A program made the position numbers and the translations under genes. This document shows, one piece after another, positions 541 through 9,383 of a stretch of DNA of 9,383 bases. The stretch lies in contig JBJCIZ010000161.1 of assembly GCA_051294375.1 (NCBI GenBank), forward strand, positions 1 through 9,383, given 5' to 3'. This DNA is from Paraspadella gotoi. Its lineage: Eukaryota; Animalia; Chaetognatha. How positions within the stretch are numbered: the first letter of the stretch is position 1; every line of letters begins with the position of its first letter. The notes under the pieces are model-generated. The model was given only the letters and a program-made list of their open reading frames with translations. It was not told the DNA's origin and did not search any database.

Positions 541-1050
541 AGATAAGAGGTGGAACGGGTGACAGCTATAGTAGCGTCATTCCTATCTCGGTTATATATT
601 GATGTAGACGAACTTCCGGTAGATGATCGTGAAAAATATCTTGAGTTGTTGAAATGGCACACTGGTACGGCTCATATTCCATTAAGCAATTGAAAATGAA
701 CTGCGAGTGGCACTAAAGCTTTATCTTATGCTAAACAAAAGTTAGTTCAATCACTGGGTTATTAGGCAACATACTGCGTGACGCTGAAAGATTACGTGAC
801 ATTTTATAAAACAGACTCTACTTTAAGTAAAGGGCGATCTTGTGTCTTAGAACCATATGGAGCCTTGATGAGGCTAAAAACACTGCTCTCATGTCTGGGG
901 ATGATGAAGGTTTTCTAACATCGATCTTGTAAACAAATTTGATTGATAAGCGCATTCCATTTCTACGTGATAAATGGCACAATACTTCCATCACAAGTTG
1001 ACCGTTTATTCAAAAGCAAATAGGAACAATTTGATCATTTCTTATACTCT
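541..1050 (+). pseudogene. BEL/Pao gag capsid-like region (DUF1759-like), frameshifted
   Basis: 580-675 reads FLSRLYIDVDELPVDDREKYLELLKWHTGTAH, followed by KALSYAKQKLVQSLG (~715-760) and LIDKRIPFLRDKW (~940-978). These resemble the EKLxxLxxxxxGxA, AxxxLxxxFG and KLPxxLRxKW blocks of BEL gag. Boundaries are approximate. Confidence 0.6.
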
Positions 1051-1264
1051 GGGATGATTTCAAGCAAACAGCTGGAGTCTCCCATATGCTCGTCCAAGTT
1101 TGCCTCCAAAAAGATGAGTTAAAGTGCCAGCTGCTAACACTTCCATGACTTCAAATACTCTAGCAGCTTCCAATCAAAAGGTAACAACAAGGATTCTCGG
1201 CTCAGCTACATGAAAGGCAATCAGTGTTAACAAAGATCTTAATGATCAAGTAAAAAGTTTAACA

Positions 1265-1477
1265 TGCCCTTTGGCACTAGTAAACATTATTTTGTCCCTG
1301 GTTGTCCTAATTTTATTAAATGGGACCAAGGTGCAAAGATATTTGAGTATGCTAAAAGTTAATCGTTTATGCTTCGACGGATGTCGTTGAACTAAACATT
1401 AAAATCTCTGACTGCAAGCATCACAAAGTTATTCTGTAAGACATGTAACTCTAAAAGCCCATTACTGCTCCTTCCAC
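1265..1477 (+). pseudogene. Three gag Cys/His zinc knuckles typical of BEL/Pao, frameshifted
   Basis: CP..(fs)..SKHYFVPGCPNF (1265-1314); LCFDGCR*TKH..(fs)ISDC (1367-1414); CKTCNSK..H...H (1434-1477). Confidence 0.75.
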
Positions 1478-1664
1478 ATCAGGCAAACAAAGATTACTCA
1501 AGCAGCTGATGATTTCTATAACAAAGGTGAAAACAAACAGTTGCCATCCACAAGTACAGATTCAACATCTGCCAGATTCTTGCTACAAATGATGGAGTGT
1601 TGGAACTTTATAGACCTCTTGATAGGCCATATTGTGAACACAAAGACAAACTGGAAACTGTTAT

Positions 1665-2100
1665 GCATTGTTGGGATACAGGCCAGTACAGAACAATGTT
1701 GTTCCACTGAAACTATCAGGAAAGATTAAACTTTACCAACAACAAAAGGTTTGGCTGACGGTTGTCAACTTCTTGATGCCTCCAAGACTGAACTACGTTC
1801 CATCAGTTCCTTTGACTTTACAATCCAATAGATAATCATTTTAAGAACAAGCGTTGTATGTTGCTCAATAGCCTTTCAAATAGAAATGTTCTCATTCCCC
1901 ACTTCAGGACAAGTTACAAATTATCCTCGATAAAGATATAACCTTACATGAACAGGGTGTGGTCCTTTCAAGATGATTGTATTGATAGGTATGGACTCCT
2001 TGCCCATTCCCTTGTGCCTGATGCTTCTACCATGCGTAGGAGCGCCCTCGGAATTGCACCCTTGTGCCGTTCAAAACACGATGGGGTGGACAGTTTTGGC
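1665..2100 (+). pseudogene. Retrotransposon aspartic protease (DUF1758-like), frameshifted
   Basis: GCA TTG TTG (G) GAT ACA GGC (C) AGT at 1665-1687 gives ALLDTGS with two 1-nt insertions. Downstream are IVLIGMD and HPCAVQNTMGWTV (ORF 1973..2182), matching the ILIGxD and PxAxxTxLGW motifs of BEL proteases. Confidence 0.8.
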
Positions 2101-2329
2101 GGTTACTCTTTCAGCCTGCTCTCAGTTTGAGTGTGATGCTATTAATTTTGACAATGAGATTTTGTCACAAAAAGTTGGATAAACTTGTTCGCATCACGAT
2201 TTAATGACACGAGATGAAAAAAAGATTGTGAGCCATAAATGATAAAAAAGCTCTTGGAGTTTTTAAAGGACTCTTTAAAATTTTTGTATGGCAATATCAA
2301 GTTGATTAACCTTGGAAGGAGAAGAGTCG

Positions 2330-3050
2330 GGGCAAGCGCTGAGGATCTTGGAACCCAGAGCCAGTTGCAAAAATGGCACTCAAATTGAAAAAAAGGTGAA
2401 ACTGTTCTGAGAAAACAATGAGGAAGTCAAAACAATGTTTTGATCAAGTTGAGACTTGGTAAGGAGGTTATATTCCATTGTTTTAAGAATCCTTTGACAG
2501 ACCAAAGGAAACCATTGCGGTTATGCTATAATCCTGGTCCAAAGAGATGACAAACCTGGCAGGTAAGAATATGCCATGATGCCAAGGCAGGACAGGAGGG
2601 AGTTTCTTTTGAATCTCAAACTGTGTCTGGCCCTGATTTGGCAAACAATTCTTGTTGCTGTTGATGAGATTCCATTGGAACATAAATAAGCAATCAGGCT
2701 GATGTTAAGGAATTTTTTTTACCAAGTCAGGTTGATCCCGAAGATAGAGATGCATCCGTTTTGGTTGGGCCCTGACAGGGAAAATGAAAGAAGGATCCCA
2801 TTCTGTTCCATAACAATGCTTGGTCTTTGTGCCAAAACCAGCACCAACAGCTGCCAACTTTGCTGTCCAAGAACATGCAACACAAAAACAAAGATTAAAT
2901 GATGTCACTACAGTTAACACGATAAAGAGAAGAATGTATGTTGATGAATCATCACTTCCAAACCAAAGTTTCTCAAGGAACAAGCATCATTGACCAATTG
3001 GACTAAGTACTTAGGCAAGGTTGTTTGAGCTGGAAAATTTGGTCAAACAA
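2330..3050 (+). pseudogene. Reverse transcriptase of BEL/Pao element, frameshifted
   Basis: KPG(K)VRICHDA (2552-2583), SGPDL (2626-2640), ADVKE..FYQV..DPEDRDA (2698-2755), AKPAPTAANFAV (~2830-2868), and MYVDE at 2934-2948 at the YVDD catalytic position. Confidence 0.9.
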
Positions 3051-3129
3051 GTAAAGAGTTGTGGCTGGTATGGATCCCTCAATGCTTGCAAAATCCATGC
3101 AAATGTTTTTGGACTCTGAAGAATATCCC

Positions 3130-3890
3130 AACAGGAAAAGGCTCTGGGCATATTTCTTGATTTGTAACAACAGAGTTTGCTGGTTTAAATATAGATTTTA
3201 AGAATGGGGAAAAAGGTCAGAATAAGGAGAAAGCTCTTTCTCTACTGCTTCATCTTTGACCCATTAGGCTTGCTGCACCCTTTATTTCAATGCTAGACAA
3301 CAATACAAAAGTTTTGTGCAAATTAAACTTGAGTGGATGAAATAATCTCTGGAGGAAAAAACCAGCTGATTGAAAAAATGGCGTGAGAATCATTATTGTC
3401 ATCTTGAAAAGGTCTATGATTCCTCGTTGGCTCTCTTCCAAAGACATGAAAAGAAAATCATCTCCAGAGATTGCACATGTTTAGCGATGCAGTCAATGGA
3501 GGTACGGGGGTTGCGCGTATGAAAGACTGACAGATAATGAAGGAAATATTAAAAGTCTCATTTTTTATGGAAGGCCAAGGGTGATTCCAACTCATCAAAT
3601 TACTAACTGGTGCTTTACATGGGTCTTATCCCAAGGAAAGAGTTAACGCTTGCCCTTTCTTCGGCGGAGAGCTGAATTATTGTCATGTCAAGGATATTTC
3701 TATGATCAAATACTTCTGCGGTCGACTCTACCTGTGTGTCTTGAAACAATAAGAAATGAAAAATGCCCATTACAAACCAATTTGTTGCTAATCGCTTTAA
3801 GTAAAATTCTTCATGCTAAGGACCTAAGAAAGTTAGAACATGGCGCATACGTCCCCAACAAACAACTCACTGACCTCTGTTCACGAGGCA
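3130..3890 (+). pseudogene. Pao-type RNase H / peptidase A17 region, frameshifted
   Basis: KALGI (~3138-3152), IFDPLG (3252-3269), LHMFSDA (3471-3491), IPRKEL (3628-3645), VDSTCV (~3722-3739), FVANR (3781-3795), DLCSRG (3872-3889). Confidence 0.9.
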
Positions 3891-4392
3891 TGTGCTGTGA
3901 TCAGGAGCCTGGATTTTACCACAACTGGTACCTAACTATGTATGTAATAAGAATGAAATGGCCATTGAGGATTGCCTCTGCAGCTCAGTCCTACCGACCG
4001 GATTCACCTGACTGTCTTGCAGCTCCAATAGGTCTTTAAAAAGTATCAAAGAACTTAGTATATTCTTGAATGATTCTGACAGCCAACATTTCTACTTGGG
4101 ATAAAATATAAAGAAAGGCTTGCCATATTCAGGCGCTTTGCATTTATCCAAACTAAAAGGAAAAATTATTTTTCACTTTCTGAATACCAAAATCAGGAGC
4201 TTCAACGTTATAAACTTCTTCAGAAAAAGCATTTCCACCGCGGAGTAATGAGTTTCTTTCTAAGAATTCTAAGTTATTGTAAGGTTCCATCAGAAGACGC
4301 AATGCAATAAGCATCACTGGAATGAAATGTCTTGGAACAAAACAGAAAAGGAATTATGGGTTTGTTCTCCATTACAAGCACTTTGATCCTTT

Positions 4393-5250
4393 TTGGATGT
4401 GGAAAATGGCATTATTCCGAGTAGGTGGTCGTTTGCCACAGAGCCAGATTGACACCCGGATCAAGGCATTCCAGCCATTCTTCCTTCAATGACAAAGTTG
4501 TCCAATTCTTTGATTCCGATACACTCATGATTCTCTGCCCATTGGTGGTACTGAGCAGACTCTTGCTGAGTTAAGACAACGTTTGGATCATAAAAGGACG
4601 GGCAACTGCTTAAAGAAAGTTATCTAGTTGCATTCCATTAAGAATCATCATGGTCGTCCAAATTAGAACAAAAAATGGCTCTTTACCTTCGTTCGCACTC
4701 AAATAGGCTACCCATTTGAAGCCACAGGAGTGATACATTTGGTCCATTTTCATAAGTCTGGGAAGAAGTAACATTAAAACATGGTTTTAATATTTACATG
4801 TTTACGAGTAAGAGCTGTGCATTAGAGGTAATAATGGAATCTCTCTACCTGCAGCATTCATAAATGCTCCGATCCGATTCCGTTGCCCGCCGACCTGCAG
4901 AGACATATCATGTACTCTGACAATGGCACCAACTTTGTGGGGCCAACAAGAACTTCTAAGGCATCAATGAATTGGGAACTCTGATCCACCAGGTCCATGC
5001 TTCCATGAAACCGACTCCAACATTGAATGGCACTTCAATCCTCCCTCATCTCCTCATTGGGTGAGGTGTTGGAAAATGGTTGGTAGAACCGTCAAAAAGC
5101 TCTTCATGTTTATTTCTTTGACAAAAGAGAATAAATCTGATTACCTTCCTCACGCTGGAACAGTGCCGAAGGCATAGTTACCGGCGCCCACTGACACGAG
5201 TTCCAAATGAAGTAATCGATCTTGAGCCTAACGCCGATCAGATTCTCAAT
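4393..5250 (+). pseudogene. Integrase (H2C2 zinc-binding plus DDE core), frameshifted
   Basis: RVGGRL (4418-4435), GGTEQTLAELRQR(F)WI (~4544-4589), PFEATG(V)DTFGPF (~4712-4749), IFTCLRVRAVH (4790-4822), YSDNGTNFVG (4913-4942), IEWHFNPPSSPHW (5022-5060), AEGIV(N)RRPLT (~5165-5196). Confidence 0.92.
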
Positions 5251-5329
5251 CTTGGGTGTGTCACGCGTTGGCGGGCCATCCTCTGATTCATCCACTCCCA
5301 CGACGGCAAGTGACGTTTCGTGATGCCTG

Positions 5330-5620
5330 GAAAAGCAGAGCCGCCAATGGCCGACGAATTTTTTGGCGCCGATGCAGCGCGATACGTATTTCGTGCCGCA
5401 AATCTCGATGACCTGGGGAAAGACCCGCAGGGAAAAATCTCAAAAGGGCGATGGTGCTCATCACCAATTGAACTGGTTCTCAGGGCCGCAATGGTCTATG
5501 CCCGTCGTGACGACGACTTTCCGACAAGTATATTCCAGCCAGCTTGTACGTCGGGTCTTGGTCCGTACGGCGAAATGGGAACTTTTCTCCGCGATCGCTC
5601 TGCCTTGTACTACTTGAGTG
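5330..5620 (+). pseudogene. C-terminal DUF5641-like domain of BEL/Pao pol, frameshifted
   Basis: ADEF..WRR at ~5350-5372, KGD..VLI at ~5445-5462, and QLVRRVLVRTA at 5540-5572, at the expected position after the integrase core. Confidence 0.75.
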
Positions 5621-6145
5621 CTGCTTTTCCTGACGATGGGAGGTAATCTGACCCCTTCTGTCATTGATCATGACACTATCCATCCTTCAATTGAAGTGGA
5701 TGATAGGAACTGAACATTTCTTTTAAAATTTGGTCCTAATTTTGTTACAGATTTTGTCTTCTGATTTAACAGTATTTACCTTACTTGGATGCTATCTTAC
5801 TGTTGATTTAAAATGTTTATGAATTTAGTATCATTTAAAGACGTTATAATAATACTTTTAAGTTGCCCTCTATCTATAAAAAATTAATTTTATATCTGTC
5901 GAATATGATGGATTGTTAAATTTTTATTGTACGAGATAGTCTCTTGGTTGTTTGATGCCCTTTAATGAATCATATTTTTTGTTGCTTACGAAGTATCTGA
6001 TTTGATCAAAGTATTTTAAAAGTCGCTCTCTGATGGTTAGTCCTTATGATGTGCCTTAACCAAAATAAAAAGAGATGTGCTTACTAAAACAGAGAAGGTT
6101 TACCAATATTCGTGACAGTCGCCAAGTGGCGTTTGGGGTGATATT

Positions 6146-6873: not shown

Positions 6874-7461
6874 AGTAAGGTGTAGTGAAAGTTGCAGATC
6901 AAAATACGAATAGTTGTTCATGAACAGTCTTGTACAAAAGAACATTGATATATAAATTTTTTTAAAAATTTTGTTAATTTTCGCATACGCCCATATTTAT
7001 ACATAGTACTTACCATAGAAAATGTCAAAATTTAAAAATAGTTTTTTTTTAGTTTTGAAAGCAGATTCTAATTCCTCATAAAAAGTTGATAAAAGAAAAG
7101 TCTTAATCAAAAATGTTTTCATTAAGTTAGCTAAAATTCAAAAAACTATATTTTTTATACTAAAATAAAATTATAGGTTAATAATAATAGTTTTTAACAT
7201 TTTGACCCACTTAATAAAATATTTTTTTAAATTTTAAAAATTCCTTTTATCAACTTTTTGTGAGGAATTCGAATCTACTTTCAAAAATAAGAAATTTTAA
7301 CATTTTTTATGGTGAGTACTATGTATATTGTATAAATATGGGCTTATGCAAAAATTGAAAAATAAAAATTTAATTTTTATATTTAAAAATGTTCACCTGT
7401 TCGTGATCTACTATTCAAATTTTGATTCTACTTAATTTTAATATTTTTGCTACGCTTTACT
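6874..7461. mobile_element. Long palindromic foldback element / MITE-like non-autonomous DNA transposon
   Basis: The left and right halves are imperfect reverse complements about a centre near 7168. Example: TTTTGAAAGCAGATTCTAATTCCTCATAAAAAGTTGATAAAAG (7053-7095) vs reverse complement of 7244-7286, TTTTGAAAGTAGATTCGAATTCCTCACAAAAAGTTGATAAAAG. GCATACGCCCATATTTATAC..ATAGTACTTACCATA (~6983-7017) matches ~7307-7349, and ATCAAAATACGAATAGT (6898-6914) matches ~7410-7426. Outer ends are approximate. Confidence 0.85.
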
Positions 7462-8280: not shown

Positions 8281-8433
8281 ATTATTATTATGTGTTAGTG
8301 ACAGAACCGTTTAATATAAGTAGTCCCTGAGCTTCGGATCAGGCTGTAACAACTGCTAGTCGACCACCGGGCTAGAACCCCAGACCTTTGGTTTGGGAGG
8401 CGAATGACTTGCCTCCGGCACCAATGGTCGCTC
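8281..8433 (-). mobile_element. tRNA-derived SINE (tRNA-Gly-like head) with (TAA)n tail
   Basis: Minus strand reads GAGCGACCATTGGTGCCGGAGGCAAGTCATTCGCCTCCCAAACCAAAGGTCTGGGGTTCTAGCCCGGTGGTCG. It has an A-box-like TGGTGCCGGAGG, a B-box-like GGTTCTAGCC, acceptor-like pairing CGACCA/TGGTCG, and TCGCCTCCCA resembling the tRNA-Gly(CCC) anticodon arm. An ~70-nt body follows and ends ATAATAATAAT. Confidence 0.7.
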
Positions 8434-8699
8434 ATGAATGGTTGGTGGATTTTAGTCCACCATATAACCAACCAATGTATAAGTTGATCAATTATAAATA
8501 ACCTATGGTATCTCCTGACTTTAGACATGCTTTACTTTTAGGTCTTTCAATAACATTCAGTTACAGTTCAATCAATGAGACTCATTCATTAGCCCTTCCT
8601 CAGGCAATACAAATTGGCCACCTCACCATTTTTTTGTGCGCTTTGTAGTCGGGCATTGCCTAGGTTCACCCTGCCTATAAGCATAACACCTTCAGTCCT

Positions 8700-8941
8700 G
8701 ACCCGGTGGCTCATTGAGTAATGTCATCAGCTCATGACCACTAGGTACCGGGTTCAACCCGGTAACTACTCTGCGGGAAGCGTGAGGACGGCCGTAAGCC
8801 GCCTTGGGGGCATGGCAAACACTCAAGCCTGGTTCCAAGCCCAGGGACCCGTTCCATGGCTGCTAGAGGGGGTTATAGAAGTTACGGACAGTCATCTTCA
8901 GCCCACGTAGCGCCTTATCCACAGCTTTAACCTCAAAAAAA
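8700..8941 (+). mobile_element. tRNA-derived SINE carrying an internal twister ribozyme; short A tail
   Basis: A-box-like TGGCTCATTGAG (8707-8718), T-arm/B-box CCGGG-TTCAA-CCCGG (8748-8762), GC-rich structured body, and CTTTAACCTC followed by A7 (8935-8941). A possible diverged TSD is TAACACCTTCAGTCCT (8684-8699) / TAACACCATCTGTCAT (8957-8972), 13/16 identical. Confidence 0.75.
8773..8852 (+). ncRNA. Twister self-cleaving ribozyme, circularly permuted type P5 (variant with minimal P1 and 1-nt-short P2)
   Basis: P5 GCGGG(8773-77)/CCCGU(8848-52); AA; P2 strand GCGU(8780-83); conserved GAGGA(8784-88); P1 CGGCCG(8789-94); conserved UAA(8795-97); P2 strand GCC(8798-8800); T2 GC(8801-02); P3 CUUGGG(8803-08)/CUCAAG(8822-27); P4 CCUGG(8828-32)/CCAGG(8841-45) closing L4 UUCCAAGC(8833-40). 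Pseudoknot T1 is UCC(8834-36):GGA(8786-88) and T2 is GC(8801-02):GC(8839-40). Confidence 0.8.
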
Positions 8942-9383
8942 TTATAAAGTTTTGATTAACACCATCTGTCATTTGTCAAATTTATTCCATCTTCCTTTGC
9001 TTCTATTCTGCTTTCTTTCTCGTGGCGTTCACACAACAGAGTTGTGGTCCTCTTCTGACTACTCGGTGCATGAAAATTAATAGGAACCCGAAAATGAACA
9101 GTAAGCAATGAACATTTTTCGTATTACCATCAGAAAAATGGACACAGAACCAGATATTCTCACCTCATGATAAAGATACTCACTAATTTATTTACATTTT
9201 GCTTCTGTTTTGATATTGATTGATTCACAATTTAATTTTTTTTTTATTTGTCTAAATTATATATAATGATATACATAATCTCCATTTAGTTATTAGAAAA
9301 ACAATTTTTGGTAAAAACTTTCAAATACGGTAAGCACATATTATAAAAGAGAACCAAAATTTTTATTTCAAAAACTTAAAAAC

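Follow-up and report, generated by a model that had tools for sequence, protein, structure and literature searches.

The 9,383-nt stretch of Paraspadella gotoi DNA analysed here (the window) holds, close to its right end, a repeat that raises a question of design: what use would a mobile element have for a ribozyme that cuts its transcript just behind a Pol III-type promoter? The original prediction described a tRNA-headed SINE at 8700-8941 with a built-in type-P5 twister, whose cleavage would leave the promoter on one RNA fragment and the LINE-recognition tail on another of ~146 nt, a paradox for a SINE. We examined the ends of the repeat, its twister motif and its variation among family copies, and compared it with known ribozyme-bearing and Pol III-type elements.

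Ends, copies and parts of the repeat

Contigs from eight public runs, out of ten with matching sequence, were aligned to the window. Seven runs come from one organism (three studies, one possibly the source of the window) and gave 5,297 (X1), 4,343 (X2), 2,214 (X5), 449 (X6), 413 (X7), 1,556 (X8) and 2,138 (X9) aligned contigs. The predicted multi-copy nature of the repeat therefore stands, with thousands of contigs of the family in several runs instead of a single-copy locus. The eighth run (X10), from a second organism, gave 1 contig of 161 nt, which covers 8736-8890 including the twister at 90-95% likeness and represents either a related family or carry-over.

Loose contig ends pile up at 8644 (83, 54 and 20 contigs in X1, X5 and X6; 55, 49 and 35 in X2, X9 and X8) and at 8923 (61, 41 and 14 in X1, X5 and X6; 56, 12, 44 and 24 in X2, X7, X9 and X8). 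Depth in X2 rises from 316 to 84,078 at the left end and drops from 90,094 to 538 at the right end; outside 8644-8923 depth is down by more than 99%. These piles and steps, with self-comparison, define a high-copy repeat of 280 bp on the plus strand, 8644-8923, with TGT...ACA ends, which we read as a solo LTR. The boundaries 8700-8941 are replaced accordingly, and the ~146-nt tail fragment, which followed from them, goes as well. Self-comparison found no long terminal inverted or direct repeat in the unit, the inverted match being 4 of the first 5 bases. The window copy is flanked by a 4-bp target-site duplication, GCTT at 8640-8643 and again at 8924-8927, read in this one copy. Positions 8924-8941 are thus target duplication and flank, and the A-run at 8935-8941 lies in the flank, outside the family sequence.

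The majority sequence of the loose ends is AT-rich (agreement 0.38-0.46 in all runs listed), and the two flanks are roughly mirror images, the left ending in TAGATA (X1, X2, X5) and the right starting with TAT (X1, X5, X6, X7, X9). Mirror-image flanks around an AT-centred site fit an integrase that makes an even-length duplication; they also fit a preference for (TA)n. The loose ends and joints listed, where short contigs and majority lines may hide a minority of full copies, show no PBS, no PPT and no copy with two LTRs; nor do the listed joints include one from 8923 to 8644, as tandem head-to-tail copies would give. A single contig, present in X1 and X2, connects 8757 back to 8646 through 23 letters with a terminal G-run and was considered as PPT plus second LTR. 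We dropped it as evidence because that G-run is similar to 8804-8813 of the element itself; a copy nested in a deleted copy explains the contig equally well.

The repeat (all parts on the plus strand) begins with a leader at 8644-8699, which has TATAA at 8676-8680 and which we label U3-like. Depth over the leader is ~1/4 to 2/3 of that over the following tRNA-like head, which points to mapping loss or to some copies that may start near 8700. The tRNA-derived segment at 8700-8770 has an A-box-like motif at 8707-8717 and a B-box-like motif at 8751-8760. The latter is contained in the loop of a strong hairpin (8742-8768) immediately 5′ of the twister; the window copy is without 6 loop bases behind 8754 that other copies carry. 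The predicted tRNA-type Pol III promoter survives as these two box-like motifs, but not as a tRNA call at the head by ARAGORN or Rfam. By the box criteria used for Helenus elements (TRGCY...YGG, GGTTC), TGGCT and GGTTC are present and YGG is degenerate. Behind the twister a remainder at 8853-8923, which we label U5-like, ends in CCACA. The 280-bp element has no TTTT terminator; the first one is at 8950, in the flank.

The twister motif and its variation in the family

Every twister core element lies where it was predicted and in the P5-permuted order, within 8773-8852 on the plus strand. The closing stem P5 (8773-8777 with 8848-8852) is followed by AA (8778-8779), the P2 3′ strand (8780-8783), the GAGGA core strand (8784-8788), the loopless palindrome CGGCCG in place of P1 (8789-8794), UAA (8795-8797), the P2 5′ strand GCC (8798-8800), GC (8801-8802), the P3 hairpin (8803-8827) and P4 with its loop (8828-8845; stem 8828-8832/8841-8845, L4 UUCCAAGC at 8833-8840). 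G8784 presumably holds the place of the twister general-base guanine. P4 is an intact stem of 5 bp; P2 has 3 bp including one G.U pair, plus a bulged C8781, and a change at 8821 private to the window copy disrupts one P3 pair. Both pseudoknots, which have their partners in the L4/P4 region, are Watson-Crick as claimed, T1 with three pairs (GGA:UCC, from the GAGGA strand to L4) and T2 with two (GC:GC). T1 had been pointed out as a covariation; the pairing is there, but its GGA:UCC form is common among phage P5 twisters (GAGGA with UUCC in their parses) and is thus nothing special. The predicted cleavage site, U8795/A8796, is placed by homology to twisters (PMC8501958).

The P1 palindrome pairs within a monomer over at most 1 bp, short of the hairpin of at least 2 bp taken as the criterion, and over 6 bp when two copies pair (self-duplex -10.7 kcal/mol); it is the predicted dimerisation site. 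The GAGGG at 8867-8871, farther downstream, was weighed as the core strand of a P1-type parse and rejected by eye, P2 being non-adjacent and T1 weaker. Judged from its sequence, we regard the type-P5 motif as confirmed, with P1 collapsed.

The Rfam model Twister-P5 (RF02684) matches at the site when 8500-9100 is searched, at 17.9 bits (E 0.32 over all families) and under the gathering score of 37.6; its alignment misplaces UAA because P3 is long. In the whole window nothing in Rfam reached gathering level, hammerhead included, and Rfam models evidently overlook twisters of this build. A covariance model of 30 aligned phage P5 twisters, with the window sequence left out, scored 8777-8847 at 31.4 bits (rough E 9.8e-8), the runner-up in that search having 6.9 bits; in its alignment of the window copy P2 has the bulged C, the P1 loop has zero length and P3 is treated as an insertion. 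A relaxed twister descriptor, composed after the motif was seen, had a single match in the window, none in 20,000 shuffles of the element and none in 1,000 shuffles of the window.

With the type-P5 twisters of RF02684 the element shares the element order, GAGGA, UAA, GC, L4 and both pseudoknots, and with the phage examples also a 3-bp P2 and a P3 hairpin. We collected 123 phage parses in P5 order, 88 of them with full P2 and P4; three Watson-Crick P2 pairs occur in 78 of the 123, one search pattern having favoured a 3-nt strand. The element differs in its bulged P2, its sub-threshold Rfam score and, above all in length, in the 6-nt palindrome that replaces P1: the P1 linker is at least 14 nt in the 88 full parses, save one nested mis-parse. 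No short palindromic linker together with full P2 and P4 was found in 30 viral loci, or in at least 120 prokaryote genome loci (15 in full order; 59 of 64 parts scanned). A 20-base P4 motif searched in metagenome contigs gave 4 loci, all chance matches unrelated to the element. Several phage contigs (L111, L120, L109, L108 and neighbours) carry runs of 3-5 P5-type twisters with 3-bp P2, a few hundred bases apart.

Variation in the family was taken from contig listings at 8% and 2% cut-offs, contigs being a source that drops rare variants. Differences private to the window copy (at least 90% of depth) were excluded, as was a one-G deletion in 8844-8846 that can be placed outside P4. Counted in this way, variants occur at 0 of 44 positions of core, P3 and P4 and at 32 of the 180 other positions (Fisher p 5e-4). 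Within the twister span the figures are 0 of 44 against 7 of 36 (p 0.003), and for the 18 core bases by themselves 0 of 18 against 32 of 206 (p 0.055). Variants at 8798, 8774 and 8789 preserve pairing, the predicted bulge at 8781 is variable, and the common variants within the P3 hairpin (8812, 8816, 8819) sit in its loop. Conservation of the tRNA-like segment, where 6 of 73 positions vary, is similar to that of the twister span, with 7 of 80. The conservation of GAGGA, UAA and L4 that was expected of a working ribozyme is seen in that no core variant is listed, but two-sided compensatory changes are absent from the listed family variants. The pattern lends moderate support to selection on the twister fold.

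Folding energies, which leave pseudoknots unscored, are less favourable. In the window copy the minimum-energy fold is more stable than the active fold by 13.6-14.1 kcal/mol, a larger gap than in any of the 88 phage parses (median 2.6, maximum 11.2 kcal/mol), and a CGGC/GCCG hairpin is predicted to compete for the P2 and T2 strands with a probability of ~0.4. The window copy is thus predicted to be misfolded as a monomer. Since its private change at 8821 breaks a P3 pair, other copies may fare differently. A folding z-score of -0.12 for the twister span is uninformative.

Identity of the element and its possible cycle

The 280-bp repeat is probably the solo LTR of a Helenus-like TRIM. Helenus elements are TRIMs with a tRNA-like sequence in the LTR, a Gypsy-like PBS and, in animals, 4-bp duplications and LTRs of up to 323 bp, often with at least 10 LTRs per internal part (Kojima 2024, PMC10886601); at such a ratio a PBS would be hidden in our majority lines. 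Helenus TRIMs (TRIMp3) and the present repeat have in common a unit of LTR size with internal A and B boxes, termini of the form TG...CA and a 4-bp duplication, and many solo LTRs are to be expected. They differ in that, in the Helenus LTR sequences examined, the tRNA-like part is near the 3′ end of the LTR, followed by a short, often T-rich tail, whereas here it is followed by 150 nt that include the twister and no TTTT. In the text of PMC10886601 the word twister is absent and ribozyme occurs in a reference only; a term search of its consensus file, in which line breaks can hide matches, gave neither the twister P4/L4 motif nor a match to the element.

A ribozyme in an LTR has its precedent in plants. 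Plant retrozymes carry one in LTRs of 300-400 bp; they generate 4-bp duplications, occur as solo LTRs too and yield circular RNAs (PMC4918200, PMC7761336). The LTR retrozymes of Cervera et al. (2016, PMC4918200) are like our element in the ribozyme within a ~300-bp LTR, the 4-bp duplication, the solo LTRs and the non-coding sequence. Theirs is a type III hammerhead known from plants, whereas ours is a twister joined to tRNA-type boxes in an animal; moreover, plant retrozymes were described without evident promoters (PMC7761336), an LTR promoter being reported later (PMC9695139). The element may therefore work like a retrozyme without belonging to them, its ribozyme motif being a twister and not a hammerhead.

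The reading that we prefer, with a probability of roughly 0.45, is a retrozyme-like use of the twister: the repeat would be a solo LTR, the parent element a small non-autonomous LTR retrotransposon, and RNA of its two-LTR form would be cut once per LTR to unit length. Pol III would start near 8700 in the 5′ LTR and read the internal part into the 3′ LTR; with no TTTT in the 280 bp it could read through both LTRs, although at such length the lack of a terminator is weak evidence. The twister would cut at U8795/A8796 in both LTRs and release a monomer with a 5′-OH and a 2′,3′-cyclic phosphate, to be closed into a circle by a ligase of the host. Reverse transcriptase and integrase of Gypsy type, acting in trans, would copy this circle and integrate the product, duplicating 4 bp of target, and LTR-LTR recombination would leave solo LTRs, the window copy among them. 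Circularisation and reverse transcription with a Gypsy-type helper have been proposed for retrozymes as well. The separation of promoter from tail, a product of the wrong boundaries, then ceases to be a paradox, because a transcript with a ribozyme in each of its two LTRs would be cut twice, yielding RNA of unit length. Retrozyme-like circularisation and processing of multimeric transcripts, both among the options offered with the original prediction, are the ones we judge most likely, freed of the SINE context. If true, this cycle would explain where the defined ends of Pol III transcripts from an LTR element come from, and would unite TRIMs with Pol III promoters (Helenus, Cassandra) with ribozyme-bearing LTR retrozymes, which so far are hammerhead-based and plant-derived.

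The repeat could instead be an ordinary Helenus-type TRIM solo LTR that replicates in the normal LTR manner, the twister being an inactive or barely active relic of a SINE or Penelope-like fragment. The collapsed P1, the bulged P2, the predicted misfolding and an Rfam score well under threshold all suit a relic, as does a twister span conserved no better than the tRNA-like segment; Helenus itself has been proposed to originate from a SINE inserted into an LTR (PMC10886601). Such decay is harder to reconcile with 18 of 18 core bases and both pseudoknots being intact, and with variants that sit in loops, the bulge or linkers, or else preserve pairing; inefficient cutting is in any case possible for twisters without P1 (PMC8501958). 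We consider the relic a serious alternative, though rather improbable. Less credit goes to a non-LTR, non-autonomous element moved by a Penelope-like (Naiad-type) retroelement, in which Pol III promoter and ribozyme would make unit RNAs from tandem copies as in Sm-alpha. That element does combine a Pol III promoter with a hammerhead (PMC6765202), Naiads are without canonical hammerheads and prefer (TA)n targets (PMC8557442), and the flanks of our family are TA-rich. The reading is nevertheless unlikely, given ends that are fixed to the base on both sides, TGT...ACA and a 4-bp duplication, a window copy outside any TA run, and the lack of a tandem head-to-tail joint among the joints listed.

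In a further reading, the tRNA-like and twister sequences are cargo of a Ginger-like DNA transposon that is non-autonomous and has very short termini, TGT...ACA. Sharp-ended copies of unit length, the 4-bp duplication, the symmetry of the flanks and the failure to see an internal part would all follow; the reading is quite improbable in view of a terminal inverted repeat no longer than 4 of the first 5 bases and a conserved RNA fold that points to an RNA stage. Least probable is the conventional tRNA SINE at 8700-8941, with a LINE-derived tail and cut by its own ribozyme. Its tRNA-like A and B boxes are there, and the greater depth of the head than of the leader would allow some copies to begin at the head. 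Yet the family reaches 56 nt 5′ of the head at which the SINE was said to start, no pile near 8700 is among the loose ends listed, and the family stops at 8923 in CCACA, so that the A-rich stretch taken for a tail is flank not common to its copies. The SINE reading is largely refuted and a conventional SINE identity is not supported; repeats of this build are easily mis-filed as SINEs or tRNA genes.

Returning to our preferred LTR reading, its ribozyme also has counterparts among other retroelements. Truncated twisters occur at the 5′ ends of RTE elements (PMC7761336). The variants in RTE-clade LINEs (Perere-3 of schistosomes, PMC8501958) resemble ours as retrotransposon twisters with a weak or absent P1 but are P1-type and 5′-terminal in an autonomous LINE, not LTR-internal. 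Schistosome Sm-alpha and Sj-alpha are, like our element, short Pol III-type repeats with an internal self-cleaving ribozyme (PMC6765202), cleavage being predicted here; theirs is a hammerhead in a tandem non-LTR arrangement. The accessible portions of PMC10085705 and of bioRxiv 10.64898/2026.07.22.740005 describe no element of this kind. Nor did the titles, abstract openings and passages that we searched, a body of literature with subscription papers mostly outside it, yield a twister-bearing LTR element or a dimeric twister.

The P1 palindrome and the neighbouring sequence

Twisters without P1 can still cut, though inefficiently (PMC8501958). As P1 consists here of a palindrome only, efficient cutting probably needs two copies paired via CGGCCG, and the palindrome suggests cleavage by paired copies. 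Two monomers in the active fold come to twice -14.3 to -15.6 kcal/mol, and a swapped two-strand fold is predicted to be more stable, at -47.5 kcal/mol. It is nevertheless less stable than a pair of misfolded monomers (-61.4) and than the minimum of the dimer (-71.9 kcal/mol), pseudoknots being left unscored. In a transcript that contains both LTRs, the two motifs would together make up an ordinary P1-type twister with a 6-bp P1, the first contributing its 3′ half and the second its 5′ half; it would span the first UAA to the second GAGGA and have the whole unit as its P5 loop. Transcripts of solo LTRs, and the ligated circle, would have a single palindrome each and so be largely spared from cutting.

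A precedent comes from Penelope-like elements: where their hammerheads have a tiny, palindromic stem III, cleavage is believed to take place in the dimer (PMC6765202). The likeness to these minimal hammerheads is in the helix beside the cleavage site, a short palindrome, and in a repeat that is present twice per transcript; the ribozyme class and the retroelement differ, and dimer cleavage is in our case a prediction only. The element bears on whether twisters, like minimal hammerheads, act as natural dimers. That it is an animal LTR retrozyme with Pol III promoter and twister in one LTR, active only when the two LTRs of a transcript pair via the palindrome, we put forward as a doubtful but specific proposal. 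If it is true, the twister is a natural dimer-dependent one and serves as a check for full length: unit RNAs are excised for circularisation, and solo-LTR transcripts and the finished circle stay intact.

A second tRNA-headed, repeat-like stretch lies on the minus strand at 8318-8435. Its acceptor stem is partly intact, and next comes a hairpin at 8323-8345 that resembles the twister P4. The hairpin is a blastn match to the P4 of the element and scores 6.9 bits with the phage-twister model; the stretch has no Rfam match, and no GAGG/UAA core was seen adjoining the hairpin.

Read-through translation of 600-5700 on the plus strand shows, by eye, motifs that we take to be those of a BEL/Pao-like LTR retrotransposon. 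The coding region is heavily decayed, with many stops and frameshifts, and Pfam gave no match in five open frames or in the three read-through frames of 601-5700. Between the two, at 6970-7362, is a long AT-rich inverted repeat of MITE-like appearance, its arms up to 92% complementary.
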